Virus record (IMG/VR): IMGVR_UViG_2706794555_000001 | Span: 1-64,000 of that record | Reading direction: 5' to 3' (one strand) | DNA from: a virus | Taxonomy: Duplodnaviria > Caudoviricetes | Length of the DNA: 64,000 nucleotides | Part shown: positions 15,400-40,321 of the stretch, one piece after another | Layout: each line of letters begins with the position of its first letter | How positions within the stretch are numbered: position 1 is the stretch's first letter | Made by a program: the position numbers and the translations under genes | The notes under the pieces: generated by a model | What the model was told of the DNA's origin: nothing | Databases searched by the model: none | The model's input: only the letters and a program-made list of their open reading frames with translations

Positions 15400-15478
15400 G
15401 GCACTGCCTTCCGGTATCTAATGGTTCGTCACATTATCTCGCGGTTTGCCCATGATCGGGCGGCTTTACCGGAGTTGA

Positions 15479-16977: not shown

Positions 16978-17019
16978 GCGGGTGGTCCTTTCGTTGGCCC
17001 GGCGGCCGGGCGGAGAAGG

Positions 17020-17352
17020 TTAGGAGGTGCGCTGGGCTGCGAGGCTGCGGGCGATGTCGGCGATCACGTCGGCCTGGGTATCCACGCGCTTCCGCTCGGC
17101 CTCGTAGTCCCGGCGCAGCGCCCGACTGTCCTCCGCGCCGTGGTAGTACCGCATCAGCGAGTCGAGGAGCGCGCGGGCTTCCTCGCCGCCGAGGGTGATC
17201 GACGGCTCGACGTCGGCGCTGCCCTCGGTGATCTCCTGCATGGACGGCTGACCGCCGGGCCGGTGAAGGTACCGGCCGCCGGGGCCCTCGTTGAGGATGA
17301 AGACGCGGACGCCGTCGCCGAACGGGCCGTCCGTGACGTGAACGTTGATCAT
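17020..17352 (-). CDS. Hypothetical protein
   Basis: GGAG RBS. Confidence 0.7.
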   Translation of the reverse strand: MINVHVTDGPFGDGVRVFILNEGPGGRYLHRPGGQPSMQEITEGSADVEPSITLGGEEARALLDSLMRYYHGAEDSRALRRDYEAERKRVDTQADVIADIARSLAAQRTS

Positions 17353-17423
17353 GGCTTACTCCAGCGTGGTCGGGGTGGTTGCTGCCTGGCCGGCGCGACC
17401 AGGCAGCAAGCGGGCGGGGTGGG

Positions 17424-17900
17424 TCAGCCTCGGCAGGCGGTGAGCAGCCACGCGGGCCGCTCCTCCAGCGGCGTGAGGCCCAGCACGGCCAGTGCGGCGC
17501 GGAGCCTCTCGTCGGCCTCCGCGTTGGCCTCGGCCGCCAGTACGGCCGGGTCGATGACCGTCAGCTCGCCCAGATAGGCCGAGTGCTTCTTCGCGGACAG
17601 GAACAGGTCCCCGAACTGGTAGCCGCCGTGCTCGAACTCGACGCCGATCCTGGCCTCGGCGTCGCGGCGGCGCTGACGCCACGCGTCCGGGTCGGCGTCG
17701 AAGTCGCCTTCCTCGTAGCCGACGGCGGCCATCAGCCGCTCCTCAGCCTTGTCCTGGAACTCGTCGTCCTCGCCGAGCCAGTCGAGATTCAGGCCCCACA
17801 GGTCGCTGTCCTTGGGGTGGATCTCCTTAACCTGCCAGCCGTCCTCGTCGGCGCGCAGACGGTAGCCGTAGATCAGCTTCGCGGTGGTGCTCATTCCCAT
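17424..17900 (-). CDS. Hypothetical acidic protein
   Basis: GGAG RBS. Confidence 0.7.
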   Translation of the reverse strand: MGMSTTAKLIYGYRLRADEDGWQVKEIHPKDSDLWGLNLDWLGEDDEFQDKAEERLMAAVGYEEGDFDADPDAWRQRRRDAEARIGVEFEHGGYQFGDLFLSAKKHSAYLGELTVIDPAVLAAEANAEADERLRAALAVLGLTPLEERPAWLLTACRG

Positions 17901-17926
17901 GGTGATCTCCGATCGGTGAGGGCGGG

Positions 17927-18139
17927 TCAGGTGTCGGGGCAGCTGTGCCCGTCGCAGCTGTTGCAGTGGTGCCAGGCGAGCGGGTTGCCGACGAAGGCGG
18001 CTGCGGCGAGCGTGGCGCGGGCTGCGAGGGCGGCGAGGAACTCGGGGCGGAGCATCAGCGCGCCGGGTTCTTTGGTCATCTCGGCGTTGATCTTGCGGAT
18101 GAGCGGGTTCAACTCCGACAGGTCCAGGTCGTCAGGCAT
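17927..18139 (-). CDS. Hypothetical protein
   Basis: GAGG RBS; overlapping start. Confidence 0.6.
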   Translation of the reverse strand: MPDDLDLSELNPLIRKINAEMTKEPGALMLRPEFLAALAARATLAAAAFVGNPLAWHHCNSCDGHSCPDT

Positions 18140-18677
18140 CGTCGGCGACCTCGGTCCACTCGCCACCGGGAACGTCCCGGTGCAGCAGTGCGACGCAGGC
18201 CCACGACGGGTCCTTGACGAAGAACTCGGCCCCCTGCCGGGACTTGCAGGTCAGCACGTTGCCGTTCTGGGCACGCGCACCCCACAAGCAGGCGTCATCG
18301 CGCCGCTGCCGGGCCTCGTCGACGTGGTTGTTGTGCAGGTCGACGGCCTCCTGCGTGCCAACAGTCTCGGCCCAGATCTCGACCGCATCGAAGTACCGGT
18401 GGTACAGGTCGCGCAGGTCGTCGCCGTCCACCGGCAGGCCCGTGTCCTCGAAGTCGGGGCTGTAGTTCTCGGCGGCGTACTCGTAGCCCTCGTTCTCGAC
18501 CTTCCAGACGAAAGCGACGAACTCCAGCCAGTCGTAGTCGGACAGGCCGGTCGGGTTCTGGATGTCGGACATGGTCGGGCCCTCCTGGCAAGGGCTGAGG
18601 TTGGAGTGGGCGTCACGGCCGCAACCGCAGCGGACACCGCCAGGGCCGTAGGTGATCGCGGCGTCGAGGTCAGGCAT
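18132..18677 (-). CDS. Hypothetical acidic protein
   Basis: Overlapping start; high GC3. Confidence 0.65.
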   Translation of the reverse strand: MPDLDAAITYGPGGVRCGCGRDAHSNLSPCQEGPTMSDIQNPTGLSDYDWLEFVAFVWKVENEGYEYAAENYSPDFEDTGLPVDGDDLRDLYHRYFDAVEIWAETVGTQEAVDLHNNHVDEARQRRDDACLWGARAQNGNVLTCKSRQGAEFFVKDPSWACVALLHRDVPGGEWTEVADDA

Positions 18678-18969
18678 CCTCGGCCTCCTCGACGTAGCCG
18701 CTGATGGTGCGGTACAGGTCGGGGTTGCTGAGGCAGGCCTCGATGACCGTGGACAGGATCCAGCTGTCCTTCGGGAAGTCGTCGCCCTTGGGGTGCCTGG
18801 TGCCCTGGACGTAGCCCATGACGGCGGCTTCCTTCATCAGCACCCGCTCCCGCTCGGTGAAGGTGCCGAAGCGTTCGGCTGCCTGCTGGCGGCGTTCGGC
18901 CGCACGGTTGGCGAAGAGGGTGAGCAGGGCGTCGGGCAGCGGCGGGTCGACGGCGGTGGGTTCGGGCAT
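18670..18969 (-). CDS. Hypothetical protein
   Basis: TGATG coupling; EAAVMGYVQG motif. Confidence 0.65.
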   Translation of the reverse strand: MPEPTAVDPPLPDALLTLFANRAAERRQQAAERFGTFTERERVLMKEAAVMGYVQGTRHPKGDDFPKDSWILSTVIEACLSNPDLYRTISGYVEEAEDA

Positions 18970-19388
18970 CAGCCGGCCGCCTTCGCCACGGGCTTGCGGT
19001 CGCGTGCGCCTTGGGCGACGCCGATGGCGAAGTTGATGCCCGCCACGCGCGCGGGGTCGGGGGCGATCCGCAGTGACGTCAGCAGGGTGTCGAGGACGTC
19101 GTTGATGCCGTCGGCGCGCACGTCGGCCAGGTACGGGGCGAGGGCGGCGTTCATCTCGGCGTCGGTGCCCTGCATGGCCTGCCACACGGCGAGGATCTTG
19201 GGGAGGGCGATGGCGAACGCGTCGGTGTCCCACTCGCCCTTCCGCAGCCGGGACTGGCACTTGGCGGGCCAGGTGGAGCAGGCGCAGGCGCGGTCGTGGT
19301 AGTAGTCCGCGAGCGTCTGGTTGCCGACGTCGATCAGGGCTTCGAGGGTCGCGGTGGGGAGGTCGAGAGGGTCGGCGGGCTCAGACAT
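18969..19388 (-). CDS. Hypothetical protein
   Basis: AAAGGA RBS; AT-rich upstream region. Confidence 0.7.
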   Translation of the reverse strand: MSEPADPLDLPTATLEALIDVGNQTLADYYHDRACACSTWPAKCQSRLRKGEWDTDAFAIALPKILAVWQAMQGTDAEMNAALAPYLADVRADGINDVLDTLLTSLRIAPDPARVAGINFAIGVAQGARDRKPVAKAAG

Positions 19389-19510
19389 GAGGGTGATCCT
19401 TTTGGGATAGTTTGTGTGGGTTTATCATCTCATCCTGACGCATGATCAGGTCAGGGAACGGCCCCATCCGCCCCGCCAAAACCGCACGCCGGAGAGGGCG
19501 GTGGGGCAGG

Positions 19511-19954
19511 TCAGCCCTGGGCCGGCTCGTCCACGACTGCAATCTGGAAGCCGTAGCCGTAGTAGAACGGGTTGCCGCTCGACCAGCCCACGGTCAGCTC
19601 CAGCACGTCGCCCATGTCCGCGTAGATGTGCCAGCGCGTGAACTCGTCCGTCGTGCCGACGCCGGTGATGACGTGGTCGATGCGCTCCGGGTGCAGCAGG
19701 AACGCCTCCAGCTCTGTGAACGCGCAGCAGTCGTCGGTATCGACGAGGAAGACCCGCTTGCCGCTGTCGAGCGTCAGAGCCGTGCCCCGGCCGCGCCAGC
19801 TGTTCGCCGACTCCGGGATTACGGCGTCCCTCTCGATCATTACGATCCGGTGCCCAACGACCGCGTCAGCGAGCGCGCTGACGTTCCTCGGCATCGTGCC
19901 GTCGTCGACCTCGTCGGACAGGGTCTCGATCTCGTAGCTCACTGCTTCGGACAT
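19511..19954 (-). CDS. Conserved actinophage protein
   Basis: DCCAFTEL...SSGNPFYYGYGF motif. Confidence 0.7.
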   Translation of the reverse strand: MSEAVSYEIETLSDEVDDGTMPRNVSALADAVVGHRIVMIERDAVIPESANSWRGRGTALTLDSGKRVFLVDTDDCCAFTELEAFLLHPERIDHVITGVGTTDEFTRWHIYADMGDVLELTVGWSSGNPFYYGYGFQIAVVDEPAQG

Positions 19955-19983
19955 GGTGGGACTCGCTTTCGGTTGAGGGTTGA

Positions 19984-21321
19984 TCAGACGAGCGTGACGA
20001 GCCGGGCGTAGTGGCCCTGCTGCTCGAGGTCGACTTCGCGTCCGCGCGGCCCGTTGCGGTTCTTGCCGACCTCGAGGTGGCGGACGCCGTTGTCGGGGCC
20101 CGGGTTGGCGGGGTCGTCGGGGATGTCCTTGGAGATCAGCAGGATCACGTTGGAGTCCTGCTCGATCTGGCTGGAGTCCTTGAAATCGGACACCAGCGGC
20201 TTGCGGCCGACCTGCCCCCGGTTGAACTGGGCCAGTGCCATCACGGGGACCTGGAACTCCATGGCGAGGAGCTTCAGGCCGCGCGAGATGTCGGCGACTT
20301 CCTGGGTGCGGTTCCTCGAGCCCGGCCCCTCGGGTGCGATCAGTTGGAGGTAGTCCGCGACGACGAGGGCTGGCGGGTTGCCCGTGGAGTGCATCCACCG
20401 GACCCGGGCGCGGATCTTGGACAGGGACAGGCCGGGTGAGTCGTCGAGGATGAAGTTGGTGGCGTTGCGGAGCCGGTCGGCGACCTTGGCGATGCGCTCC
20501 CAGTCCGGTTCGATCAGCTTGCGGTTGACGAGCCTGGACAGGTTCACGCTGGCTTCGGCGGCGGTGAGGCGGGCCAGCAGTTCGGTGCCGCCCATCTCCA
20601 TGGAGGCGACGAGGACGGGCCGGTTGCGGCGCAGTGCCACGTGCGCGGCGCAGTTGAAGCCGAGGAGCGACTTGCCGCCGGAGGTCTCCGCGCCGACCGC
20701 GATCAGGTCGCCGGGCTTGAAGCTGGTGACCTCATTCAGGTCCTTCCACGGGGTGTCGAGGGCGTTGGGGTCCTCGCCTGCCTCGAGCTGGTCGATGAAG
20801 TCGTCCCACCGCTCCCCTACGGACAGCTTGGGTGCGTCCTTGGGCGAGCCGAGGATCAGGGCTTGGAGGTCGGCGATGGTGGTGTCGAGGATGTCGTCGG
20901 GGTTGTCGCGCTCGAGGCTGCGGCGGACGGTGCGGGCGGCGATCTCGTAGATGCGGCGGAGCTTGGCGGTGTCGCGGACGATGCCGGCGTACCAGTCGGC
21001 GTTGGCGCTGACCGGCACAGCGGCGACGAGGCGGTGCAGGTATTCGCTGCCGCCGATGCGGTCGAGCTCTCCGACTTTGAGGAGCTGCGCGCCGACGGTG
21101 ATCGGGTCGGGTGTGATGCCGGGTTGTCCGTGGACTTCGAGGATTGCGGTGTGAATGGTGGCGTGGGCGGTGCGGTAGTAGTCGCCGGGGCCGGCGAGGG
21201 TGTCGGTGGCGTCGTCGATGGCTCGTTCGCCGAGGAGCATGCTGCCGAGGAGTGCCCGTTCGGCGGAGAGGTCACGCGGACGCGGGTCCTCTTCCTCGAG
21301 GTGCTCGGGCTGGTCGTTCAT
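19984..21321 (-). CDS. dnaB: DnaB-like replicative helicase
   Basis: AERALLGSML N-domain, Walker A GAETSGGKS, SMEM, VVADYLQL, ALAQFNR, SSQIEQDS, KNRNGP. Confidence 0.93.
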   Translation of the reverse strand: MNDQPEHLEEEDPRPRDLSAERALLGSMLLGERAIDDATDTLAGPGDYYRTAHATIHTAILEVHGQPGITPDPITVGAQLLKVGELDRIGGSEYLHRLVAAVPVSANADWYAGIVRDTAKLRRIYEIAARTVRRSLERDNPDDILDTTIADLQALILGSPKDAPKLSVGERWDDFIDQLEAGEDPNALDTPWKDLNEVTSFKPGDLIAVGAETSGGKSLLGFNCAAHVALRRNRPVLVASMEMGGTELLARLTAAEASVNLSRLVNRKLIEPDWERIAKVADRLRNATNFILDDSPGLSLSKIRARVRWMHSTGNPPALVVADYLQLIAPEGPGSRNRTQEVADISRGLKLLAMEFQVPVMALAQFNRGQVGRKPLVSDFKDSSQIEQDSNVILLISKDIPDDPANPGPDNGVRHLEVGKNRNGPRGREVDLEQQGHYARLVTLV

Positions 21322-22202
21322 GCGGCGGCGTCCTTGGTGTGGTCGGGGTGGCAGGTTCGGCATGGCGCGGAGCTGCGGAATCCGTCGGCGTCTTCGGTGG
21401 TGCGACGCCGGGTGGCGGGGTTGCAGTCCTCGTCCTCGCACCACGGGGTGGTTGGGCCGCCGGGCGAGGCGCGGGTCTTGGCGGTGGGCTTCTTGATCAG
21501 GTCGGCGATGCGGACGGGCAGGACGGTGATGAAGTTCTTGATCCCACCGGGGTTCTTCGTCAACTCGGTGGCGAGGTCGTCGTCCAAGTCCCAGCCCTGT
21601 GCGTGGATGGCTTCCAGGAGCTGCGGGGCGAGCTTGGCGGCCGTGGCGCGTCCGACGGCCCAGGGTCCGGGCAGCGACTGGAGGAAGGTCTCGGCTGCTT
21701 GTTGCTGGTCTCCTCCGCCTCCTCCTGGGGTGGTGGAGGCAGGCGGGTCGGCAGGTGCGGAGGTGGTGGTCTCTGGTGGGGTGGTGGTGATGTGGTCGGG
21801 TGAGCCGACCGATTCCGCTTCGGATTGGTCGGGTGAGCCGACCACCCCTGGTCGGGTAGGCCGACCGATTTCAGATTTGGGATCGGTCGGGTGAGCCGAC
21901 CGATTGGTGGTCTCGGGTCGCCGGTGGCCGACTGCTCCACGGAGCCGATACACGCTGGCTCCGTAGCGGCCTTTCTCGCCCTCAACGACTTCCAGTTCTC
22001 CGGCTTTCAGGAGCACCTGGATCGCGTCGGTGACGGCCTCGCGGGTGCAGTTCGCCCGCTGCTGGAGAAAGGTCACGGACCCGTAGGCCTTGCATTCTCT
22101 GGCGGCCGGCAGAGCCTTGTCGGCGAGGGCCAGCAGCACGAGGCGGCCCACCCCCTTGGAGCTGGAGTGGTTCCACACCCAGTCCATCGCATCAAGGCTC
22201 AC
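21318..22202 (-). CDS. Phage replication initiator (Rep 2) with N-terminal wHTH
   Basis: MDWVWNHSSSKGVGRLVLLALADKA; internal iterons; C-terminal PWC..C...PCRTCHP; coupled to dnaB. Confidence 0.85.
   Translation of the reverse strand: MSLDAMDWVWNHSSSKGVGRLVLLALADKALPAARECKAYGSVTFLQQRANCTREAVTDAIQVLLKAGELEVVEGEKGRYGASVYRLRGAVGHRRPETTNRSAHPTDPKSEIGRPTRPGVVGSPDQSEAESVGSPDHITTTPPETTTSAPADPPASTTPGGGGGDQQQAAETFLQSLPGPWAVGRATAAKLAPQLLEAIHAQGWDLDDDLATELTKNPGGIKNFITVLPVRIADLIKKPTAKTRASPGGPTTPWCEDEDCNPATRRRTTEDADGFRSSAPCRTCHPDHTKDAAA
21794..21901. repeat. Four 17-bp palindromic iterons (probable origin)
   Basis: GGTCGGGTGAGCCGACC at 21794, 21827, 21885 and GGTCGGGTAGGCCGACC at 21850. Confidence 0.85.
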
Positions 22203-22248
22203 GTGCTCTTCTCTCGAACGTCGCGTCAGGAGTCGCTGGCCGGGCGCG

Positions 22249-22479
22249 TCAGTCCGCGAGCATGAACTTGTCGACGGTGAGCTTGTAGGCAGTGGCGAGT
22301 TGGCCGAGCGTGGCGAGACTGGGGCGGTTCTCCTGCCGGGTGATCCGGGAGAGGACGCCGGGGTCGACGCCGGAGCGGCGGGAGATTCGTGAGAGGTGCA
22401 GCCGGCCGTCGTTTCGGACATCTCCGGCGAGGGTGGCAGCAGCTTGGAGGGTGGCGAGGTTGAGCTTGTAGGTGGCCAC
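22249..22479 (-). CDS. Cro-like XRE HTH regulator
   Basis: ISRRSGVDPGVLSRITRQENRPSLATL; divergent from repressor; GAAAGG RBS. Confidence 0.8.
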   Translation of the reverse strand: MATYKLNLATLQAAATLAGDVRNDGRLHLSRISRRSGVDPGVLSRITRQENRPSLATLGQLATAYKLTVDKFMLAD

Positions 22480-24330: not shown

Positions 24331-24810
24331 CTACTCGGCCGGCGGGTCGGCGGCGACCAGGCTGTAGTAGCGCGCCTCGGACCACTTTGGCGCGCCAACG
24401 ATCTCGGCACGACCAGCGGCAACCAGTGCCCGCAGCGTGTTGTGGGCCGAGGTTGTCGAGAACCCGCTCTCAAGAGCCAGTTCAAGCGCCGAGAAGCGCC
24501 GCCCCCCGTAGCCGTTGAGCACGATTCCAGTCAGGACGGGCGACCCGCATGCGCGCTTGCGGCCCCGGTTGAACACCACGTTGTGCTTCGGCCGCTCGGC
24601 GGCAATGGCCTTGCCTTCGGCAAGCGCAGCCTCGCTGCGAGACGGGTACCAGGTGACCTTGTAGCTAGTGACGTTGCGCCACCAACTCCGGTCGGCGTGC
24701 GAGTACCAGCGCTTCGCAGGCTCCAGGCATATCCCGATGTACAGGACCTGCCCCTCCCGGTCGAAGAACCGGTAGAGGGCGACCTCCTCGTCATTCGTTC
24801 GGTTGATCAT
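24331..24810 (-). CDS. GIY-YIG nuclease domain with C-terminal HTH
   Basis: ALYRFFD...LYIGI...R..H...AE..AI..ERPKHN; HTH SALELALESGFSTTSAHNTLRAL. Confidence 0.8.
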   Translation of the reverse strand: MINRTNDEEVALYRFFDREGQVLYIGICLEPAKRWYSHADRSWWRNVTSYKVTWYPSRSEAALAEGKAIAAERPKHNVVFNRGRKRACGSPVLTGIVLNGYGGRRFSALELALESGFSTTSAHNTLRALVAAGRAEIVGAPKWSEARYYSLVAADPPAE

Positions 24811-25129
24811 CTCGCCGCTGGTTGAGCGCTGCGTCATTCGCGCCGGTCTCTCTCTTGCTGCGGTGGACGCCGTGCACGGGCTTCCGATTCCGGAAGTACT
24901 CCTCGATGGGCGGCCACGGGATCTGGAAGTACGGCCCGAGCTTCTTCCACGACTCGCGCGGGACGGGCCAGTTCGGGTCGGTCTTCGAGAGCTGGCTCAC
25001 GCGCTCCCTCGTCATCGTCTGCGCGTAGCCCAGATCGACGACGCGACGGGCGATCTCAGCGAGGGTCACCAACTCCTGCACCTCCCCTGTGGGTCCGCCG
25101 TTTTCGGGCACACCGGTAGTATCTCCCAT
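24791..25129 (-). CDS. AlpA/excisionase-like HTH regulator divergent from the transfer operon
   Basis: LVTLAEIARR...MTRERVSQLSKTDPNWP. Confidence 0.65.
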   Translation of the reverse strand: MGDTTGVPENGGPTGEVQELVTLAEIARRVVDLGYAQTMTRERVSQLSKTDPNWPVPRESWKKLGPYFQIPWPPIEEYFRNRKPVHGVHRSKRETGANDAALNQRRDDQPNE

Positions 25130-25268
25130 GACCTTGACCTCAAGTCAATATCAGTGCTTCCATGGGAAGCACGCTCTTCCGACAGAGAGCGACCCCCGTT
25201 CCGCGGTTTCTGAGGCGGCGGAACGGGGGCCTAGAGCAAGCCCTTGACCTTGACGGGAAGGCAAGCCC

Positions 25269-25610
25269 ATGGTTTCGCATGGTACAGACGGTGCGATCTC
25301 CAGCACAGACCCGACGCGGCTGATCGACTCCGGCTCCCACAGCGTGGCTCTGTCGCTGCCGACCGACTTCGACGTCGACCACGCCCTCGGCGCCTACGGT
25401 GACGCCGCCCCGCTGAGCCCCCGCGACTGGCGCGGCCACATCGACCCCGCCTCCATCCCCACCGCGCCGCACACCGCCCCGTCCATGACCGCGCAGCAGG
25501 TCACCGAGGCCTTGCGCGGCAGCGACGTCGACGACGGCTGGCACGGCAGCATCGAACGCCCCGCAGCCTGGGCCGCGTTCGGCGACGGGGACGGAGGCAA
25601 CGCGGCATGA
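25269..25610 (+). CDS. Hypothetical protein (start uncertain)
   Basis: High GC3 in 3' part; ATGA coupling to next gene. Confidence 0.55.
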   Translation: MVSHGTDGAISSTDPTRLIDSGSHSVALSLPTDFDVDHALGAYGDAAPLSPRDWRGHIDPASIPTAPHTAPSMTAQQVTEALRGSDVDDGWHGSIERPAAWAAFGDGDGGNAA

Positions 25611-25855
25611 GCTGGGACGCCTTCACCATCACCCTGACCAACGGCACCACCATCACCGAGGCACCCGAGGCCGACGGCCCCGGTGCCCCCGAGTGCGTGT
25701 ACATCGAGCCCTACGGCGTCGAGATCCACGGCGACCACGCCGACATCGTCACCGACCACCCGCACTACAAGGGCGTCGAGCGCGTCAACCGGCGCCCCGA
25801 CGGCACCTTCTCCCGGCCGAAGAACGGCGACGGCTTCTCCCGCCGCTACCGCTGA
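25607..25855 (+). CDS. Hypothetical protein
   Basis: GGAGG RBS. Confidence 0.7.
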   Translation: MSWDAFTITLTNGTTITEAPEADGPGAPECVYIEPYGVEIHGDHADIVTDHPHYKGVERVNRRPDGTFSRPKNGDGFSRRYR

Positions 25856-25934
25856 ACCCCCCCAGATCGGCCGGGCTGTCCTGCAACCCCCACGCGGGAC
25901 GGCCCGGCCCCACGACCGACCGAAGGAGCCCCCG

Positions 25935-26120
25935 ATGGACCTGTTCAAAATGCTCCACCCCGACGCCCCCGCCGAGATCGTCGACGGCAACGGCGACACC
26001 TGGAAAGGCACCACCGTCCACCCGCCCCGCAACGGCGAACCCATGTACTACAACGCCACCGGCCCCGACGGCTACGCCCTCACCCCCACCGAGATCGCCA
26101 ACGAACTGGGAACCCGGTGA
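25935..26120 (+). CDS. Hypothetical protein
   Basis: AAGGAG RBS. Confidence 0.7.
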   Translation: MDLFKMLHPDAPAEIVDGNGDTWKGTTVHPPRNGEPMYYNATGPDGYALTPTEIANELGTR

Positions 26121-26326
26121 CCAGGGCCACCACGTGCAGCTGCGGAGGCACCAGCTTCCTCACCTCCACCGTCGGCTACACCAAACTCGCCGCCGGGATC
26201 CTCACCACCTGCGTCAACATCCGCTTCAAAGGCCGCTGCACGAGCTGCGGAACAACCCACTCGGAGATCGTCGCCCGCAACGTCCCCGCCGACACCGACC
26301 CGCTCACGTACTGGAAACAGCACTAG
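26117..26326 (+). CDS. Zinc-ribbon protein
   Basis: CSCGG and CTSCG; GTGA coupling. Confidence 0.65.
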   Translation: MTRATTCSCGGTSFLTSTVGYTKLAAGILTTCVNIRFKGRCTSCGTTHSEIVARNVPADTDPLTYWKQH

Positions 26327-26356
26327 CCGCACCACCCAACCCGGAAGGAGCCCGTC

Positions 26357-26563
26357 ATGGGCCTGTTCAGCCGCCAGCCCAGCAACACCTCGTCCGACGA
26401 GAAGCCCTACGCCACCGACGCCCAGATCCGCGAGATCGCCCGCCTCGTCAATGCCGGGGACCACAAGGCCGCCACGAAGATCACCCAGTCGACGGCCGAC
26501 CCTCGCGGCGCAGCGTTCGAGGCATTCCGCTACATCGACGTCGCCCCGCCCGAAAGCAGCTGA
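26357..26563 (+). CDS. Hypothetical protein
   Basis: AAGGAG RBS. Confidence 0.7.
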   Translation: MGLFSRQPSNTSSDEKPYATDAQIREIARLVNAGDHKAATKITQSTADPRGAAFEAFRYIDVAPPESS

Positions 26564-26589
26564 CCCAGCCCCCAGAGAGGAGCCCGGCC

Positions 26590-26901
26590 GTGAACACCAG
26601 CCCAACGACCGCACTGATCGCCCTGCTCGCCGTAGCGGCCGGACTCCTCACCGGGTACTACACGCCGGCCCTGATCCCGGGGCTGGTGTTCGGGGTGATC
26701 GCCTACGTCGCCGTCGTCCTCGGCGCCATCCGACTCCTCCACCTCAACCGCGACACCACCCTCATCAACACCACCCGCTGCGTCCTCGTCGCCGCCTGCC
26801 TCACCCTCCACGCCATCCTCCGCGGCTGCATCGCAGGCCTCAACGCCCTCAACCGCTGGGACATCAACGCCATCGCACGAACGGGAGCATCCACGCCGTG
26901 A
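26590..26901 (+). CDS. Membrane protein (Spd-like spread-protein candidate)
   Basis: GAGGAG RBS; 2-3 hydrophobic segments; lies in transfer operon. Confidence 0.6.
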   Translation: MNTSPTTALIALLAVAAGLLTGYYTPALIPGLVFGVIAYVAVVLGAIRLLHLNRDTTLINTTRCVLVAACLTLHAILRGCIAGLNALNRWDINAIARTGASTP

Positions 26902-27749
26902 CCGAGGACAAGCCGATGGCCTCACCCGCGACACTGCGCCGCATCGCGCTGGGCACCGTCATCGCCACCATCGCCCTGACCGGTACCGCGTTCTGGCTCT
27001 CCTACGAACACCTGCACGACGTCGCCAGGCACTACGGACTCGACGGCAGCCGCGCCTGGGCATGGCCCGCGACCGTCGACCTGTTCATCGTCATCGGCGA
27101 AGCCCTGATCCTCAGCGCATCACTGCAGCGCCTGACCGACAGGGCCGCCATCGTCCTGGCCGTCATCGGCTCCACCGGATCCATTGCCCTCAACGTCGCC
27201 GGCGTCGGCAGCCACGCCCCCGGCATGACCTACGTCGTTGCCGCCGTGCCACCGTGCGCGGCGCTTCTGGCGTTCGGCGCGCTGATGCGGCAGATCCACG
27301 AGAACCTCTCAGGTGGCAGCCGGGCGGAGACTGGCAGTGGCAGCAGTGCGCCTGCCAGCGCACCGCCAGAGCCTGCCAGTCGAGCGGCTGCCAGCGCCCC
27401 TGCCACCCCTGCCACTCCCCCGGCTGCCACCCCTGGCAGGACCGTGCCAGAGCCCGGCGCGGCCCCCGCTGGCACGCCTGCCAGCCCGCGGCCCGCCACC
27501 CCTGGCAAGGCGCCCGCGGCAGCCGCTGGCACTTCGGACAGCACCCTCGCTGCCGCCAGCGAGGCCCGGGATCTCGACGAGGTCGCCGACACCTACCGCA
27601 AGCTCGCCGCAGCCCTCGGCCGCGCCCCATCGGACAAGGCACTCGCCGACGCCCTCGGCGTGGGCCGCTCCCGCGCGCAGCAGTTGCGCTCCGCCGCCGC
27701 CGAAGCAGGGCACGCCGATCTGGCCAAAGCGCTCCGGGCGGCATCATGA
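26898..27749 (+). CDS. DUF2637 membrane protein with C-terminal HTH (Streptomyces transfer/spread protein)
   Basis: AFWLSYEHLHDVA...RAWAWPATVDLFI...SIALNV...AAVPP; HTH PSDKALADALGVGRSRAQQLR. Confidence 0.85.
   Translation: MTEDKPMASPATLRRIALGTVIATIALTGTAFWLSYEHLHDVARHYGLDGSRAWAWPATVDLFIVIGEALILSASLQRLTDRAAIVLAVIGSTGSIALNVAGVGSHAPGMTYVVAAVPPCAALLAFGALMRQIHENLSGGSRAETGSGSSAPASAPPEPASRAAASAPATPATPPAATPGRTVPEPGAAPAGTPASPRPATPGKAPAAAAGTSDSTLAAASEARDLDEVADTYRKLAAALGRAPSDKALADALGVGRSRAQQLRSAAAEAGHADLAKALRAAS
27314..27531. repeat. TGCCA/TGGCA pentamer array 1 (candidate clt)
   Basis: 15 copies counted by eye in about 220 bp, both orientations. Confidence 0.8.
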
Positions 27750-29704
27750 CCGCCCCCAGTGACGTGACGCCGACCCCGCAGCTCTCGAAAACGCTCCGGC
27801 CTGCACCGATGCTCCCAGCCGTCACCACGTCACGTCACGGCGCTTCCCTCGCGGGCAGCCTGGAGACGTTCGCCGCCTGGTGCTCCCGACGCCGCTACGA
27901 GGCCGCTCCGCTCGCCGGGAACGCCGCCCTGACCGGCATCGCCTGGACCGAGAACCTTTCCGGCGTCGGCCTGGGAACCGGCCTGGCCTACGGTGCGGCC
28001 ACCGCAGCCTCCGGGGCACTCGCCGGCTTGGCCCTCAAGCACAAGCACCAGCACCTCGCCTCCGCCGGAGCCGGACTGACCGCGATCCTCGCCGACGCCG
28101 GCATCAACGCCATGGCCGGCCCGTCGACCGCCGGCCTGATTGCCAGTGCTATTGCCACCGCTGCCAGCTACGCCGTCTACATCCCCTGGTTGACCCGGCA
28201 CCGGCACGAGCGGTTGGCACTCCACGTCCAGGCCGCCAAGGCTGGCACCCTGGCAGGTGGCATGGGGCTGGCAGCGCAGGCCCCTGGCATCACGGGTGGC
28301 AGCGCGGAGGAGACCGCGATCTACCGGGCCCTGGCAGCCCTGGGTGCCACGCCGCTGTCCATCGACGCGTTCCAGTCGAACGCCAGCGGCTGGGTCGCCC
28401 TGGTGACCCTGCCGCCGGGCCGGGCCACGAGCCCGGGTGCGGTGTCCGCGAAGCGCGAGCAGCTGCGCACCAACCTCGGTCTGCCCGGACGGCTCACGCT
28501 GGGCCAGGGCCCGCAGGGCAACCAGCTGATCATCCGGATGCAGACCGTCGACCCGCTCGCCGACCCCATCCCGTGGCCCGGCCCGTCGATCACCTCCGTG
28601 AAGCAGGCCATGACAGTGGGCCTGTTCGCGGACGGCACCCCGATCCTCCTCGACGTCATGGCCGACCACATCCTCGTCGCCGGGGCCACCGACAAGGGCA
28701 AGTCGGGTCTCCTCAACGTCATCATCGCCAACCTCGCAGGCTGCCCCGACGTCAAGATCCTCGGCATCGACATGAAGCCCGGCGCCCTGGAACTCGGCCC
28801 CTGGCAGGCCGTCATGCACGCCCTGGCCTCCGGGGCCGAGGGTGCCGAGGCCGTCGCGGACTACGTCGTGCGTGAGATGGAACTCCGCGGCGAGCACCTC
28901 GCCACCCTGCGCGGCCCGGACGGTGAGCCGGTCCGCAAGTGGATCCCCGGCAACCCCGACGCCGACCCCGACTCGCCCGAGTGGGGCCACGGCGACGCCT
29001 GGGTGCTGGTCATCGACGAGCTGGCCGAGTTGGTCCGGCAGACCCCGAAGGTCGCCGACCGGCTCATCACCCTCAACCAGGTCGCCCGCGCCATGGGCAT
29101 CCGGATCCTCGCCGCCACCCAGTCCCCGTCCGAGCGCGCGTTCGGCGGCAAGGGCACCGACGCCCGCCAGCAGTACGGCACCCGCATCGGCCTGGGCGTC
29201 AACGAGTCCGTGACCGTGAACCTGATCCTCGGCGCCGGTGCGCTCGGCGCCGGCTGGCGGCTGCAGGACCTGGACGCCCCCGGCAAGCTGATGATCTCCT
29301 CGAAGCGGTACGGGCAGCCGCAGGAAGCCCGCGCCTACTGGATCGGCGACGGCCAGATCGCCGCGACCGCGCGCCTCAACGCCACCCGCAAGGCCGACCC
29401 GGACGGAACCCCGCCGGACGGCGGCGGCACGAAGCCGCGGCTGCTGAAGTCCGTGCCCTGCTTCCCTGACGGCTCCGAGATCCCCGCGAACCGGCAGTCC
29501 CTGTGGCAGGCCCTGGACCGGCGCGGCGCCGAGGGCGCGACGATCCTCGAACTCCTCGCCGAGGTCGCCGGGACGGGCCTGAACCAGCGCACGTCGATCT
29601 CCGACCCGATCCAGTCCTGGAAGGCCCGCGGCTGGGTCGTCGACGGCGGTCGCCGCGACGCCTCCAAGGTCTTCATCCTCGCCCGCCACGCCGAAGCAGC
29701 CTGA
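27746..29704 (+). CDS. traB: FtsK/SpoIIIE-family conjugal DNA translocase (TraB-like)
   Basis: N-terminal TM segments; Walker A ILVAGATDKGKSG; GIDMK; Walker B VLVIDELAEL; ATQSP; C-terminal wHTH. Confidence 0.88.
   Translation: MTAPSDVTPTPQLSKTLRPAPMLPAVTTSRHGASLAGSLETFAAWCSRRRYEAAPLAGNAALTGIAWTENLSGVGLGTGLAYGAATAASGALAGLALKHKHQHLASAGAGLTAILADAGINAMAGPSTAGLIASAIATAASYAVYIPWLTRHRHERLALHVQAAKAGTLAGGMGLAAQAPGITGGSAEETAIYRALAALGATPLSIDAFQSNASGWVALVTLPPGRATSPGAVSAKREQLRTNLGLPGRLTLGQGPQGNQLIIRMQTVDPLADPIPWPGPSITSVKQAMTVGLFADGTPILLDVMADHILVAGATDKGKSGLLNVIIANLAGCPDVKILGIDMKPGALELGPWQAVMHALASGAEGAEAVADYVVREMELRGEHLATLRGPDGEPVRKWIPGNPDADPDSPEWGHGDAWVLVIDELAELVRQTPKVADRLITLNQVARAMGIRILAATQSPSERAFGGKGTDARQQYGTRIGLGVNESVTVNLILGAGALGAGWRLQDLDAPGKLMISSKRYGQPQEARAYWIGDGQIAATARLNATRKADPDGTPPDGGGTKPRLLKSVPCFPDGSEIPANRQSLWQALDRRGAEGATILELLAEVAGTGLNQRTSISDPIQSWKARGWVVDGGRRDASKVFILARHAEAA
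28141..28349. repeat. TGCCA/TGGCA pentamer array 2 inside traB
   Basis: 12 copies counted in about 210 bp, forcing rare codons (ATT GCC AGT GCT ATT GCC). Confidence 0.75.
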
Positions 29705-29713
29705 GAGGCCGTC

Positions 29714-30124
29714 ATGTCCGACTACCTGGATGCCCTTGAGGGCCGCGCCGAGTGGGATCCGGTCGCTGCCGCGCTCGCCGAGGCCGACCGCCAGCGCTTC
29801 CTGCCGGTCCCGGTGGAGCGCCTGGCCGCGCCGGCCCCGGTCGTGGTGCATCAGCCCGAGCCGCTGCCCGCGCCCCAGCGCCGCGGCCTGGACCCGTGGG
29901 TGGTGCGCCCGCTGGCCCTGGGCGGCTGCGTTGCGCTGTGCGGCCTCGGCGTGGACCTGGCCGGCATGGGCATCCGGGCGGCGGGCCCGTACCTGTGGGG
30001 CCTGGCCGCGGTGCTGGGTGCGTTGGCCGCCCTGGTGGCGTTGATCAAGTCGAAGTCGGCGCCGGTGTCCGGCGGTACGAACGTGACGATCCAGGACAGT
30101 CGGCACGTCAAAGTCCGACTGTGA
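29714..30124 (+). CDS. Two-TM membrane protein (Spd-like)
   Basis: GAGG RBS; two hydrophobic helices; directly after traB. Confidence 0.7.
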   Translation: MSDYLDALEGRAEWDPVAAALAEADRQRFLPVPVERLAAPAPVVVHQPEPLPAPQRRGLDPWVVRPLALGGCVALCGLGVDLAGMGIRAAGPYLWGLAAVLGALAALVALIKSKSAPVSGGTNVTIQDSRHVKVRL

Positions 30125-30225
30125 GGCGCCGGACCGTCGGCCGCCGGATCTCTGTCTGGACGGGCCGCGTCATCTTCTGGTCCTGCCTGATCGGCACGGT
30201 CCTGCATTCCATCCACCACCACTAA
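30121..30225 (+). CDS. Small membrane peptide
   Basis: GTGA coupling; 34 aa with one hydrophobic stretch. Confidence 0.4.
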   Translation: MRRRTVGRRISVWTGRVIFWSCLIGTVLHSIHHH

Positions 30226-30234
30226 GGAGTCACC

Positions 30235-30435
30235 GTGTCGTTCCGCTTCCGCAAGTCCTTCAAGTTGCTGCCGGGTGTCCGGCTGAACCTCGGCAGCAAG
30301 TCGATGTCGATCACGCTTGGCTCCGGTCGGCTGCACGAAACCATCTCGACGACCGGTCGGCGCACCACATCGGTCCGGGTCGGCAAGGGCCTGTCCTGGC
30401 GCAGTACCAGCGGCAGCCGACGACGGAGAGGATGA
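30235..30435 (+). CDS. DUF4236 family protein
   Basis: FRFRKSFKLLPGVRLNLGSKS.SIT.G...GLSWR. Confidence 0.85.
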   Translation: MSFRFRKSFKLLPGVRLNLGSKSMSITLGSGRLHETISTTGRRTTSVRVGKGLSWRSTSGSRRRRG

Positions 30436-30668
30436 TGGCGGCCATGACCGTGCGCCCGTACCCGAGTGTCACCCGCGCCTGCCACCAACTGGAGCGCCAC
30501 GCCCAGCCGGAGCCCGAGCCGGTGCCGTTGGTCGCGGTGGACTGGGATGCGTTCGCCAAGACCGTCGGCTACAGCAATGCCAGCATCACGCGGGCCTTCG
30601 CTCGCCTCCAGGCGGCGTTCACCCAGCGGCCCGTGATCGACGTGACATTGTCGTCACGCCCCGGCTAG
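30432..30668 (+). CDS. Hypothetical protein
   Basis: ATGA coupling. Confidence 0.45.
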   Translation: MMAAMTVRPYPSVTRACHQLERHAQPEPEPVPLVAVDWDAFAKTVGYSNASITRAFARLQAAFTQRPVIDVTLSSRPG

Positions 30669-30701
30669 CCTGACGGGACCTCAGCTGCCCGCTGACGCAT
30701 C

Positions 30702-30737
30702 CCGGAGCCCCGCCGAACGCACACGGCGGGGCTCCGG
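30702..30737. terminator. Terminator hairpin ending the transfer operon
   Basis: 14-bp perfect stem CCGGAGCCCCGCCG/CGGCGGGGCTCCGG. Confidence 0.8.
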
Positions 30738-36590: not shown

Positions 36591-37901
36591 GTGTCCATCG
36601 CACCACTGACCGGCAAGGGCCTGGAGTCAGTGCGGCTCGCCGACGCCCGCATCAACCTGTGGGAAGGCTCGGTGCGGTCCTCCAAGACCGTGTCGAGCCT
36701 CATGCGGTGGCTCAAGTTCGTTCGCGAGGCGCCGCCCGGCAACCTCCTGATGACGGGCAAGACCGAGCGCACCCTCAAGCGCAACGTCATCGACGTACTC
36801 ACGGAGTGGCTCGGCCCCTCACGCTGCAAGCTCATCGCGGGCAGCGGCGAACTGTGGCTCCTCGGCCGGCGGGTGTACGTGGCCGGCGCGAACGACGAGC
36901 GCGCCCAGGAGAAGATCCGGGGCCTGACCCTGGTGGGCGCGTATGCCGACGAGGTGTCGACGCTCCCCGAGTCGTACTGGTCGATGCTGCTCACCCGCCT
37001 GTCCGTCGACGGCGCGAAGCTCTTCGGCACCACCAACCCCGACTCGCCGGCGCACTGGCTCCTCAAGGACTACCTGCAGCGGTCCTCCACCTGGCTGGAC
37101 CATTCCGGGCAGCTCCTGCGCAGCGAGGGCGAGGACCGGCTCGACCTGGCCCGGTTCTCGTTCCGCCTCGCCGACAACCCGTACCTATCCACGGCCTACA
37201 TCGACGCCCTGTCCTCCGAGTTCACCGGCCTGTGGCGGAAACGGTTCATCGAGGGCCTGTGGGTCGCCGCCGAAGGCGCGATCTACGACATGTGGGACGA
37301 GCAGCGGCACGTCGTCGACATCATCCCGCCGATCTCGCAGTGGCTGTGCGCCGCGATCGACTACGGCACCAGCAACCCGCTGCACGCCGTCCTGCTGGGC
37401 CTGGGCACGGACTCGCGCCTGTACGTGGTCTCCGAGTGGAGGCACGACTCCCGCCAGGCGCACCGGCAGATGACCGACGCCGAGTACACGGAGCGGGTCC
37501 GCGAGTGGCTGCAGGAAGTACCCGTGCCTGCCAGCCGTCGCCCCGACGGGACGTGGCTGCGCGGCGTGCAACCGCGCTACATGATCGTGGACCCGTCGGC
37601 CGCCTCGTTCCGGGTGCAGCTGCACCGGGAGGGCATGAACCCGGTCGCAGGCAACAACGCGGTCCTGGACGGCATCCGAACCGTGTCGAGCCTGATGGCC
37701 GCCGGACGCCTGAAGGTCAGCCGCGACTGCCCGGCGCTCCTCGCGGAGATCCCCGGCTACGCCTGGGACGACAAAGCCGCCCGCAAGGGCGAAGACAAAC
37801 CGATCAAGATGGCCGACCACGGCCTGGACGCCCTCAGGTACGCCGTGATGACCACGCGCTCCCTCTGGCACTCCTCGATCCCACTTGCCATAGCGGCGTA
37901 A
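36591..37901 (+). CDS. terL: Terminase large subunit (PBSX-like)
   Basis: EGSVRSSKT Walker A, YADE Walker B, TTNPDSP, IDYGTSNP, DPSA, DHGLDALRY. Confidence 0.95.
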   Translation: MSIAPLTGKGLESVRLADARINLWEGSVRSSKTVSSLMRWLKFVREAPPGNLLMTGKTERTLKRNVIDVLTEWLGPSRCKLIAGSGELWLLGRRVYVAGANDERAQEKIRGLTLVGAYADEVSTLPESYWSMLLTRLSVDGAKLFGTTNPDSPAHWLLKDYLQRSSTWLDHSGQLLRSEGEDRLDLARFSFRLADNPYLSTAYIDALSSEFTGLWRKRFIEGLWVAAEGAIYDMWDEQRHVVDIIPPISQWLCAAIDYGTSNPLHAVLLGLGTDSRLYVVSEWRHDSRQAHRQMTDAEYTERVREWLQEVPVPASRRPDGTWLRGVQPRYMIVDPSAASFRVQLHREGMNPVAGNNAVLDGIRTVSSLMAAGRLKVSRDCPALLAEIPGYAWDDKAARKGEDKPIKMADHGLDALRYAVMTTRSLWHSSIPLAIAA

Positions 37902-37911
37902 CGAAAGGCCG

Positions 37912-39699
37912 GTGACCATGACCGTGCCTATGCCGTCGATGCCGCTGCTGCAGGGAATGCCCGTCACCGACGCCCGCGCGCAGAACATGCTGCCGACTAC
38001 CAACCAGCCGTGGCCGCCGGTCCGCTTCAACCCGGTCAACTACGACCAGCGCATCTGGTCCGCGTGGTGGTCCGGCAGCCCCGACGAGCTGATGCGCGCC
38101 TACTACTCGATCGGCGCGAACAGTCCGCTCGGGCGCCAGTACTTCGCCACGACCGGCGAGGCGGGCATGCCCTCCCCGCGGCCGGGGCAGTTCCGCGGCG
38201 GCCTGCTCGGCAGCATCCGCCGGTTTTTCTGGGGCCAGCCCACCCCGCCCGGGGAAAAGCGCACGAACTACCACGTGCCGATCGCAGGCGACTTGGCGTC
38301 GACCTCGGCGAGCCTGCTGTTCGCGCAGCCGCCCACGCTGAAGTGCGATCAGGACTCCGGCGCCCAGGACTACCTTTCCGAGCTGCTGGACGACGGCATG
38401 CACTCGACGCTGCTGGAGGCGGCGGAGTGCGCGTCGGCCCTCGGCGGGGTGTTCCTGCGGGTCGTGTGGGACACCGACATCGCCGACCATCCGTGGATCG
38501 ACATCGTGCCGCCGGACTGCGCCGTGCCGGAGTTCCGGTACAACCGTCTGGTCGCGGTGACGTTCTGGTCGGTGATCCGCGACGAGGGCAAGGACGTTGT
38601 CCGGCACCTGGAGAAGCACATCCCGTCGCAGAACGTGATTCTGCACGGCGTCTACCAGGGCACCCAGAAGGACCTGGGGCGCCCGGTGGCGCTCACCGAC
38701 TTCCCCGAGACCGCCCCGTACGCGCAGGCCATGTCCACGGGCGACGGAATCTCGTTCCCCGACGCCCCGTTCGACGCCTCCACCGTCGTGTACATCCCCA
38801 ACATGCGGCCGAATCGGATCTGGCGGGACATGGGCCCCCAGGCCGCACCGCTCGGCCGCAGTGACTTCTCGGGCCTCGAAGGCATGATGGACGGCCTCGA
38901 CGAGGCCTTCTCCTCCTGGATGCGGGACATCCGGTTGGGCAAGGCCAGGCTGATCGTGCCGCACTCCTACCTGGACAACATCGGCCGGGGCAAGGGCGCG
39001 GTGTTCGAGCCGGAGCGCGAGGTGTTCGTTCCGGTCGGCGGCCTCATCTCCGGCGAGGGCTCCATCGGCGACCAGATCATGCCGCAACAGTTCAACATCC
39101 GCTGGGAGGAGCACCAGCAGACCTGCCAGAGCATCATCGAGCAGATCGTCACGCAGGCCGGCTACTCCGGCCAGACCATGGGGCTCACCGGTGACATCGC
39201 GCAGACCGCGACGGAGGTCGTGGCGCGGGAGCGGAAGTCGCTGACCACCCGCGGCAAGAAGATCAACTATTGGCGGCCTGCGCTCGCGGACATCGTCTAC
39301 GGCCTCATGGCCATCTCCAACTCCGAGTTCGGCCAGGCCATCACGCCCGTGCGGCCCGATGTCGACTGGCCCGACGCGGTCCTCCCGGACCAGCTCGAAC
39401 TCGCGCAGACCGTCGCGGCGCTGCGCGGCGCCGAATCCGCCTCGATCGAGACCGCCGTCGCGACCGTCCACCCGGACTGGACCCCGCAGGACGTTGCCAA
39501 GGAAGTCCAGCGGATCTACCAGGAGATGGACATCAACATCCTGGCCCGCGCCAAGGTCGCCATCGGAGGCCAGCCCGGCGAGTCCGTCGCCGACGCGCTC
39601 GCGGAGATCCCAGACGCGATCGGCGCAACGGACGTCGCCCAACAGGCCGAGGCCCTGGCGAACGTGTCCGACATGTACGAGTCCCAGGACGAATCCTAG
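37912..39699 (+). CDS. Portal protein
   Basis: Follows terL; GRSDF..LDEAFSSWMRDIRLGKARLIVP; TATEV. Confidence 0.9.
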   Translation: MTMTVPMPSMPLLQGMPVTDARAQNMLPTTNQPWPPVRFNPVNYDQRIWSAWWSGSPDELMRAYYSIGANSPLGRQYFATTGEAGMPSPRPGQFRGGLLGSIRRFFWGQPTPPGEKRTNYHVPIAGDLASTSASLLFAQPPTLKCDQDSGAQDYLSELLDDGMHSTLLEAAECASALGGVFLRVVWDTDIADHPWIDIVPPDCAVPEFRYNRLVAVTFWSVIRDEGKDVVRHLEKHIPSQNVILHGVYQGTQKDLGRPVALTDFPETAPYAQAMSTGDGISFPDAPFDASTVVYIPNMRPNRIWRDMGPQAAPLGRSDFSGLEGMMDGLDEAFSSWMRDIRLGKARLIVPHSYLDNIGRGKGAVFEPEREVFVPVGGLISGEGSIGDQIMPQQFNIRWEEHQQTCQSIIEQIVTQAGYSGQTMGLTGDIAQTATEVVARERKSLTTRGKKINYWRPALADIVYGLMAISNSEFGQAITPVRPDVDWPDAVLPDQLELAQTVAALRGAESASIETAVATVHPDWTPQDVAKEVQRIYQEMDINILARAKVAIGGQPGESVADALAEIPDAIGATDVAQQAEALANVSDMYESQDES

Positions 39700-39714
39700 A
39701 GAGAGGACGCGGAG

Positions 39715-39966: not shown

Positions 39967-39968
39967 CC

Positions 39969-40310: not shown

Positions 40311-40321
40311 GGAGAGTCGCG

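Follow-up and report, generated by a model that had tools for sequence, protein, structure and literature searches.

Among the described systems closest to the locus presented here, the plasmid-phage pZL12, or phage ZL12, a siphovirus of Streptomyces, was reportedly introduced by Zhong et al. in 2010. It is a working precedent for a phage endowed with transfer genes, and its transfer requires a major tra gene together with two adjacent genes, as stated in an excerpt of PMC3583192. For plasmids and for actinomycete integrative and conjugative elements (AICEs), excerpts of the same source and of PMC3429521 describe how the Tra protein binds clt repeats via its winged helix-turn-helix (wHTH) and pumps double-stranded DNA (dsDNA); in Streptomyces plasmids these clt loci consist of short direct repeats lying in or next to the tra gene (PMC3583192). 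One passage of Thoma et al. (2015) adds the remark that phage homologues of Spd proteins might aid the spread of phage DNA. With these reports, and with the annotation 'FtsK-like DNA translocase' that phage genes routinely receive, the principle is known. Here we analyse a stretch of 64,000 nucleotides (hereafter the window; positions 1 to 64,000 of the IMG/VR record IMGVR_UViG_2706794555_000001), which is the first 64 kb of the 156-kb contig C124 in a genome of 8.46 Mb and approximately 71% guanine plus cytosine (GC). The entire window lies inside a single prophage, and the cassette of interest (24791-30737, genes g50-g60) contains an ATPase gene, g58, a gene for a DUF2637 protein, g57, and two repeat arrays. 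We read it, with about an even chance of being right, as a phage-owned module for dsDNA translocation of TraB type, which would serve spreading across cross-walls or conjugation-like transfer. For gene calling, a codon-bias model was trained on this genome, and proteins were scanned against Pfam, PHROGs and NCBIfam, with PADLOC for defence models.

The ATPase, its DUF2637 neighbour and the repeat arrays

The product of g58 has the profile, the catalytic residues and the fold of the FtsK/SpoIIIE superfamily. It matches Pfam FtsK_SpoIIIE (PF01580; 4.2e-13, 49.7 bits, cut-off 24), its Walker A and B residues (G292, K298 and S299; D403 and E404) are invariant in 17 sequences, and its AlphaFold2 model (mean predicted local distance difference test, pLDDT, of 73) contains a RecA-like motor, Foldseek returning FtsK motor structures and the TcpA coupling protein first (E 2e-14, 386-416 columns). 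Residues are numbered here from the ATG at 27809, which gives 631 aa, even if the gene more probably starts at 27746, where an ATG overlaps the stop of g57 as ATGA. The modelled domains comprise N-terminal hydrophobic helices (five, at 9-143), a beta domain (184-245), the motor (268-525) and a wHTH (560-624), the latter formed by helices 560-575, 579-585 and 594-606 followed by strands 610-616 and 619-624, in a block with pLDDT of 85-88.

Profile and tree both suggest that g58 is TraB-like, yet forms a clade of its own. Its best-scoring NCBIfam family is plasmid_TraB, with 50.5 bits versus 30.1 for FtsK, and g58 can be aligned with the Tra protein of pIJ101 over 424 residues (26% identity), collinearly as far as the C-terminal HTH; in pIJ101 Tra this HTH has a match to MarR_2, and the modelled wHTH of g58 is collinear with it. 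A quick maximum-likelihood tree (35 rows and 614 columns, several of its branches being long; the root was placed on a single EccC domain, and support is by SH-aLRT, the Shimodaira-Hasegawa-like approximate likelihood ratio test, only) has a branch of 97% support that separates chromosomal FtsK from all Tra-like rows, g58 included. The clade of g58, with 100% support and 20 rows, is distinct from small-plasmid Tra, pCQ3 TraB, pZL12.71c and the protein of a cluster-BE phage. Within its own genome, the g58 motor retrieves by tblastn only the chromosomal FtsK and EccC.

The adjacent g57 has four transmembrane (TM) segments by hydropathy and matches DUF2637 (PF10935; 4.8e-18, 66 bits, cut-off 22.8; 68.2 bits in the genome scan) as well as phrog_733 (3.8e-29). 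The profile searches proposed in a preliminary description of this DNA, for FtsK_SpoIIIE and DUF2637, therefore score above their cut-offs for both proteins; of the DUF2637+HTH protein announced there, the DUF2637 domain is borne out, while the HTH tail is read from the phrog_733 alignment and the sequence only. A protein with four TM segments, encoded next to the ATPase gene and sharing a stop/start overlap with it, has the layout of the SpdB2 type.

The arrays straddle the g57/g58 junction and consist of TGCCA and TGGCA (jointly TGSCA). When TGSCA is counted per 220 nt, the genome mean is 0.23, and only two such segments in the 8.46 Mb have seven or more copies, namely array 1 with 15 and array 2 with 12. 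Synonymous resampling, in which the protein was kept and the codons were redrawn from the element's own usage in 5000 runs, yields 0.29 ± 0.53 copies for array 1 and 0.47 ± 0.67 for array 2, with a maximum of 4; codons ending in T amount to 22.5% in array 1 and 13.7% in array 2, versus 5.1% in the other genes of the element. The arrays are maintained at the DNA level and are written via rare codons.

The same double array, in matching positions, is present in the only three relatives found with at least 56% identity in the ATPase, with 14 and 12 copies in arrays 1 and 2 of the viral contig G401 (locus L035), 20 and 13 in the viral locus L036, and 17 and 12 in the replicon G086:C2; the other 66 of the 69 scanned sequences have at most 6 copies. 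Among 38 loci from genome contigs, an array was present only in that of the plasmid pCMC57_01 (L126, 19 copies), the others having at most 4. On the top strand, TGCCA predominates in array 1 and TGGCA in array 2, in the window and the three relatives alike, and most copies are preceded by C and followed by G (C-TGSCA-G). We regard the arrays as a candidate clt.

Repeats of other kinds accompany the ATPase gene more widely. Of the 43 viral loci that have a strong top array (63 loci in all), 33 have their strongest 5-mer array in the span from -1500 to +900 nt relative to the start of the ATPase gene, and in 34 of the 37 loci tested the observed count was never attained in 1000 synonymous resamplings, the exceptions being L070, L078 and L086. 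We considered a lineage-specific clt as a general rule and dropped it, because many of them are peptide repeats of low complexity and the wHTH helices are almost the same in lineages whose motifs differ; moreover, the motif of each lineage was chosen post hoc, after inspection.

Distribution of the cassette and readings of its function

The preliminary description placed the cassette between the repressor and the late genes; by our gene calls, its flanks are the divergent HTH pair g44/g45 on one side and the late genes for TerL, portal, major capsid and tape measure on the other. It is kept at this locus in three relatives, a comparison that had been proposed at the same time. G401, a viral contig of 98,183 bp with direct terminal repeats and a CheckV completeness of 100%, retains the order g45, g50, g56, g57, g58 (80%), g59, g60, g62, g63, g64. 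In G086:C2, a replicon of 97,860 bp in which the ATPase gene spans the ends of the record, the order is DnaB, the O-like gene, g55, DUF2637, ATPase and then TerL; in the complete plasmid pCMC57_01, also of 97,860 bp, the ATPase gene is split across the origin. G021:C3, a prophage from another genome within the genus, has g47, g50, DUF2637, the ATPase (about 40%) and g62-g65 (g65 at 74%). No convincing att-like repeats flank the cassette (the 20 families shown, of 53 found, are all short or imperfect) and its GC content is continuous with that of the neighbouring DNA. Because of these two features, and of the shared locus in G401, G086:C2 and G021:C3, the cassette is to all appearances phage-owned, an integral and conserved part of the phage and no foreign insertion or AICE remnant. 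Own att sites combined with absence from the relatives, which had been named beforehand as the mark of such a remnant, were not seen. The Pfam, PHROG and NCBIfam scans detect no Rep or integrase family between 24791 and 30737, in agreement with the earlier statement that the cassette has no RepSA, RepAM or integrase; hence the set of Int, Rep and Tra within att bounds that defines an AICE is not present in the cassette alone.

Beyond these relatives, 106 of 8000 candidates scored match the ATPase at E <= 1e-10. At the thresholds used it is found in 2 of 23 genomes of the genus and 12 of 401 of the family, and relatives occur in 63 viral loci of IMG/VR. In 31 of the 51 viral loci with enough upstream DNA, the 1.6 kb before the ATPase gene contain the end of a same-strand gene whose product has 230-460 aa and at least two TM segments; the gene that follows the ATPase encodes a TM protein in 27 of 62, and a TerL homologue lies within approximately 9 kb downstream in 14 of 63. 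The upstream partner is a DUF2637 protein, encoded directly before the ATPase gene, in G021:C3, G086:C2 and G401, and a home-made DUF2637 hidden Markov model finds the domain in this position in only 8 of the 63 viral loci. For 10 further upstream proteins scanned with Pfam, DUF2637 is the sole or best match in 6 and exceeds its cut-off in 1. In both small Streptomyces plasmids inspected, the Tra gene, with an FtsK domain, precedes a DUF2637 gene.

The isolated phage Gilgamesh encodes in gp10 a full-length homologue of g58 with 47.5% identity, and ATPases of the same clade (42-49% identity) are found on five Streptomyces plasmids of 130-133 kb. Such Gilgamesh-type ATPases are present on CP108533.1, NZ_CP108441.1, NZ_CP070374.1, NZ_CP107821.1 and NZ_CP122459.1, and also on many whole contigs of 124-138 kb. 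The plasmids of about 130 kb and the 129-kb Gilgamesh look like a common phage-plasmid family. The module is not a rare hybrid: its ATPase has relatives in the 63 IMG/VR loci and in Gilgamesh, and there is a precedent in pZL12.

In functional terms, we picture a module composed of the membrane proteins g56, g57 and g59, of g58 as a hexameric pump with its C-terminal wHTH, and of a cis locus made of the two oppositely biased arrays. The prophage would excise from its tRNA-Arg site and replicate with the O-like initiator and the DnaB helicase that it encodes; the arrays would be bound either by the g58 wHTH or by the HTH-like tail of g57, and the pump would then drive the circular phage dsDNA through the cross-walls of hyphae or where hyphae touch. 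The outcome might be intramycelial spreading, conjugation-like transfer, or both, beside the release of virions. The TraB-type reading is economical because it fits the Tra-clt systems of plasmids and AICEs as well as the position of tra in pZL12; the array-binding protein and the movement of DNA between cells are elements that we infer. More tentatively, and with some doubt on our part, one could envisage that large temperate actinophages and phage-plasmids, as an entire lineage, move naked dsDNA genomes from one hyphal compartment or mycelium to another by means of a TraB-like pump, a DUF2637 partner and a phage clt, the last being two inverted arrays of C-TGSCA-G that rare codons write into the two genes.

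Several observations weigh against the TraB-type reading. The match of g58 to plasmid_TraB (NF041214, an equivalog) has 50.5 bits versus 800 and covers motor residues 247-484 only, and g57 has no similarity to the SpdB protein of pIJ101 (BLASTP E = 3.1), so that the term Streptomyces-type, used in the preliminary description, calls for reservations. The deep branches among the g58 clade and the plasmid Tra groups form a polytomy with long branches; the phylogeny that had been proposed thus sets g58 on the Tra side of the 97% branch, in its own clade, without ordering the Tra groups. The equation of DUF2637 with SpdB2 is unproven, because g57 is unlike pIJ101 SpdB, which itself has no Pfam match, and because phiC31, said in one printed passage to carry an SpdB2 homologue, has no DUF2637; pZL12 has none either. 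The N-terminus of g58 contains three Ala/Gly-rich hydrophobic helices with Kyte-Doolittle peaks of 1.1-1.5, below the TM threshold of 1.6; of the ATPase described earlier as having a TM N-terminus and a wHTH, the ATPase and, in the model, the wHTH are retained, and the TM N-terminus stays a possible assignment. The relatives of about 130 kb that resemble Gilgamesh have neither an adjacent DUF2637 gene nor an array. In the TGSCA group the g57 tail and the g58 wHTH are both conserved, and covariation cannot separate the two candidate binders, whereas other lineages have different motifs near the ATPase gene together with wHTH helices that hardly differ, several of their arrays being simple peptide repeats.

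How else could such a set of genes be explained? Chromosomal FtsK couples its motor to a wHTH that recognizes short DNA motifs of defined orientation, the FtsK orienting polar sequences (KOPS). In this manner, or in that of SpoIIIE, g58 could serve segregation, clearing phage or phage-plasmid DNA through vegetative or sporulation septa as these close, which would pass it on to compartments and spores, with the arrays as a KOPS-like signal for loading or orientation. The opposite orientation bias of the arrays recalls the polarity of KOPS, several relatives are extrachromosomal (G086:C2, pCMC57_01 and the five plasmids of 130-133 kb), the gene is also present on many whole contigs of 124-138 kb, and 145 of 227 matching phage records with FtsK/SpoIIIE-like genes belong to phages of sporulating Bacillus. 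We nevertheless hold segregation to be unlikely: the present element is integrated, so that the chromosome already segregates it, the multi-TM partners resemble those found beside Tra genes on small conjugative plasmids, and g58 has a profile nearer TraB and a place in the tree apart from chromosomal FtsK. It is rather improbable, too, that the arrays belong to a replication origin as its iterons, form a partition site or act as operators for the g57 tail, and just happen to be located in these genes. The origin of lambda does lie inside the linker-coding part of its O gene, and the conservation of both candidate HTHs in the TGSCA group leaves the arrays with no specific tie to the translocase; on the other side, they lie 5-6 kb from the O-like and DnaB genes and stay within the DUF2637 and ATPase genes, in the window and the three relatives, while the surrounding genes change.

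A role in defence or superinfection exclusion, in which the membrane proteins and the ATPase would block or expel incoming DNA, has very little probability in our judgement. The match of g58 to PADLOC mad8 (3.9e-14, 50.9 bits), which might suggest it, is confined to the P-loop core (283-474) and scores similarly to Pfam FtsK; the position between immunity region and late genes is typical of phage accessory genes, but the other nine cassette proteins have no PADLOC match, and defence does not account for a self-encoded array kept by rare codons. That the cassette is an independent remnant of an AICE or plasmid inserted into the prophage is hardly credible. TraB-like and DUF2637 genes are indeed typical of AICEs and small plasmids, and this genome has nine other DUF2637 loci; against such an origin stand the continuous GC, the lack of convincing flanking direct repeats and of Int or Rep genes inside, and the presence of the cassette at one and the same locus in three relatives whose other genes differ, namely G401, G086:C2 and G021:C3.

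The prophage and the remaining genes of the window

The prophage looks complete by its gene content. An exact direct repeat of 46 bp links C82:29121-29166 with C124:71897-71942, where it overlaps the 3' part of a tRNA-Arg(tct) gene, and the C82 site is the only other exact copy of these 46 bp of the tRNA in the assembly. A tyrosine integrase gene (Phage_integrase; C124:70812-71783) abuts the tRNA gene, while C82 contains, beyond the repeat, 18.6 kb of small phage-like genes up to the contig end. The ends of C82 and C124 share 5 nt only and the left part of the prophage is unproven; provided that the two contigs abut, the prophage measures at least 90.5 kb. This size is consistent with that of relatives, because Streptomyces phages (81-83 kb) and plasmids (88-93 kb) encode portal homologues of approximately 40% identity. 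By its genes alone, with att repeats, integrase and a late set for packaging, head, tail and lysis (table 1), the element has the features of an intact temperate Caudoviricetes prophage, and the earlier view of an apparently intact phage is borne out at this level. A megablast of the late region against phages gave no match.

Table 1. Features of the prophage and of the cassette, with positions in the window
Feature	Position	Strand	Basis
Leftward early operon: Cro-like HTH_3 g44, O-like initiator g43, DnaB helicase g42	11416..22479	-	
g50, 106 aa, reading away from the cassette, possible regulator	24791..25111	-	codon-bias call
g50/g51 divergent intergenic region, candidate promoter/operator	25112..25343	.	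sequence reading
g51-g55, five small open reading frames (ORFs) of 61-88 aa, variable part of the cassette	25344..26563	+	gene call
g56, 103 aa, 3 TM	26590..26901	+	hydropathy
g57, 283 aa, DUF2637, 4 TM, Pro/Ala-rich linker, C-terminal HTH-like tail	26898..27749	+	
Array 1, 15x TGCCA/TGGCA in the g57 linker, candidate clt-like cis site	27314..27531	.	
g58, predicted FtsK/TraB-like dsDNA translocase	27746..29704	+	Pfam, model, tree
Array 2, 12x TGCCA/TGGCA in the 5' part of g58, mostly opposite in orientation to array 1	28141..28349	.	
g59, 136 aa, 2 TM, directly after the translocase gene	29714..30124	+	hydropathy
66-aa ORF, AAGGAG ribosome-binding site, absent from the codon-bias call	30235..30435	+	ORF list, sequence
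g60, 78 aa, last gene of the unit	30432..30668	+	gene call
Perfect 14-bp inverted repeat, 8-nt loop, probable terminator without T-run	30702..30737	.	repeat search
Late module	36591..63552	+	PHROG scans
TerL	36591-37901	+	PHROG scans
Portal	37912-39699	+	PHROG scans
MuF-like protein	40615-41439	+	PHROG scans
Major capsid	42805-43719	+	PHROG scans
Connectors / adaptor and neck proteins	within 36591-63552	+	PHROG scans
Major tail	48490-48945	+	PHROG scans
Tape measure, 1380 aa	50462-54604	+	PHROG scans
Dit and minor tail proteins	within 36591-63552	+	PHROG scans
Endolysin	62659-63552	+	PHROG scans

The genes that surround the translocase are unevenly conserved. The small gene g50 is divergent, as had been stated for the regulator of the cassette; the HTH then attributed to it finds no counterpart, g50 having no family match in Pfam, PHROGs, NCBIfam or PADLOC. 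Homologues of g50 occupy the same relative place in G401/L035 (41%), G021:C3 (33%) and L066 (36%). The adjacent intergenic region has a candidate regulatory role by its sequence: it contains an 8-bp perfect inverted repeat (25155-25173), a hairpin with a 12-bp stem (25194-25230) and the direct repeat TGACCTTGAC at 25125-25148 and 25241-25264 (direct-repeat family D14). No family could be assigned to g51-g55 in the scans; g55 alone has a homologue, of 44% identity in G086:C2, and no counterpart of the five was detected in G401. The small membrane proteins foreseen earlier are recognized by hydropathy in g56 and g59, which have homologues of 60% identity at the same place in G401/L035 and of 50% in G401, respectively; g60 has weak homologues in G401 and L074. 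The ORF of 66 aa that precedes g60 has an N-terminal SFRFRKSFKLLPGVRLN pattern, which may resemble DUF4236. A terminator of the cassette's own had also been proposed, and the perfect hairpin after g60 agrees with it; the scan for consensus terminators returned 0 sites because this hairpin has no T-run.

Other features of the region deserve mention. The divergent pair g44/g45 lies at 22249-23172, g44 being the HTH_3 gene. At the left edge of the cassette, a gene for a GIY-YIG nuclease-domain protein (24331-24837; 24.8 bits, cut-off 22.6) has a start that overlaps the end of g50, on the minus strand, by 47 nt. A second gene resembling a replication initiator (4-978; phrog_2447, 3.7e-38) opens the contig and is present besides the O-like/DnaB pair. 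Between the major capsid and connector genes lies a gene for a 316-aa homing-endonuclease/HNH-like protein with an HTH region (43902-44852), and the terminase genes are preceded, at a distance from the tail module, by one for a 653-aa pectin-lyase/tail-fibre-like protein (33189-35150). The latter has 74% identity to its counterpart in the G021:C3 prophage, where the neighbouring ATPase has only about 40%. Beyond the tRNA-Arg gene, a large serine recombinase and a D5-type primase/helicase (C124:72669-79475) constitute a second mobile element beside the prophage.

Comparison with described systems

FtsK-like translocase genes are routinely annotated in actinophages, and a 2026 phage-genome paper lists them only as 'noticeable genes' (PMC13587820). 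Here such a gene is placed in a conserved module of membrane proteins, at a fixed place beside the late genes, and one lineage carries with it a genome-unique repeat locus selected at the DNA level. In the literature covered by our search, outside of which most subscription journals lie, we found neither a test of a phage-borne FtsK/TraB-like gene besides that of pZL12 nor a description of such repeat arrays. What appears to be new is the phage-associated TraB-like clade, the fixed partnership with a DUF2637-HTH protein in one sublineage, the integrating phage of at least 90 kb and the conserved double array inside genes. If the more tentative reading of an entire lineage holds, a second and receptor-free route of transmission would coexist with virions, and phages of this kind would in effect be AICEs with capsids. 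If transfer is real, surface receptors would not confine the host range of temperate phages in mycelial bacteria or their spread, and the borders between phage, plasmid and AICE would blur further.

The plasmid-phage pZL12 (GQ919031, approximately 90 kb) resembles the present element in having an FtsK-domain tra gene, pZL12.71c, with its neighbours just upstream of the terminase/late operon. It differs in having no DUF2637 and no TGSCA array (maximum of 4 per 220 nt) and in possessing ParAB, being a plasmid, whereas our element is integrated at tRNA-Arg. Relatedness of the pZL12 type was considered and rejected: only three called proteins of the element have a match in pZL12 (E <= 1e-4), all of them weak, and these do not include g58. 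In Gilgamesh, gp10 is annotated as 'FtsK-like DNA translocase' and followed by gp9, a 'membrane protein', the same order as g58-g59; in contrast to the window, its DUF2637 gene is about 67 kb away, no array lies near the translocase gene and the genome is of approximately 130 kb. The likeness to FtsK and KOPS consists in the opposite orientation bias of the arrays; the difference is that the motifs are gathered here in two local arrays instead of being spread over the replicon, and that the profile of g58 is nearer TraB.

With AICEs such as pSAM2, SLP1 and pMEA300, as defined in excerpts of PMC3218068 and PMC3429521, the prophage shares a tyrosine integrase at the 3' end of a tRNA gene, replication genes of its own and a Tra-type translocase. 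It departs from them in its size of at least 90 kb and its complete virion module, and RepSA, RepAM and Prim-Pol were not found in the scanned proteins; a full AICE has Int and Rep, whereas the cassette alone has neither. The TraB/Spd/clt systems of pSVH1, pIJ101 and pWTY27 share with the cassette the FtsK-like motor with its C-terminal HTH, multi-TM partners in one operon with stop/start overlap, and a short-repeat locus in or next to tra. The differences concern g58, with its 26% identity to pIJ101 Tra and its separate clade, and the regulation, no gene for a GntR-type TraR/KorA being present in the cassette; the DUF2637 gene of the plasmids is situated downstream of tra, while here it lies upstream. 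Finally, the repeat numbers reported in print for those systems are 3-9, whereas the locus described here has a motif of 5-7 bp in two arrays of 12-15 copies.

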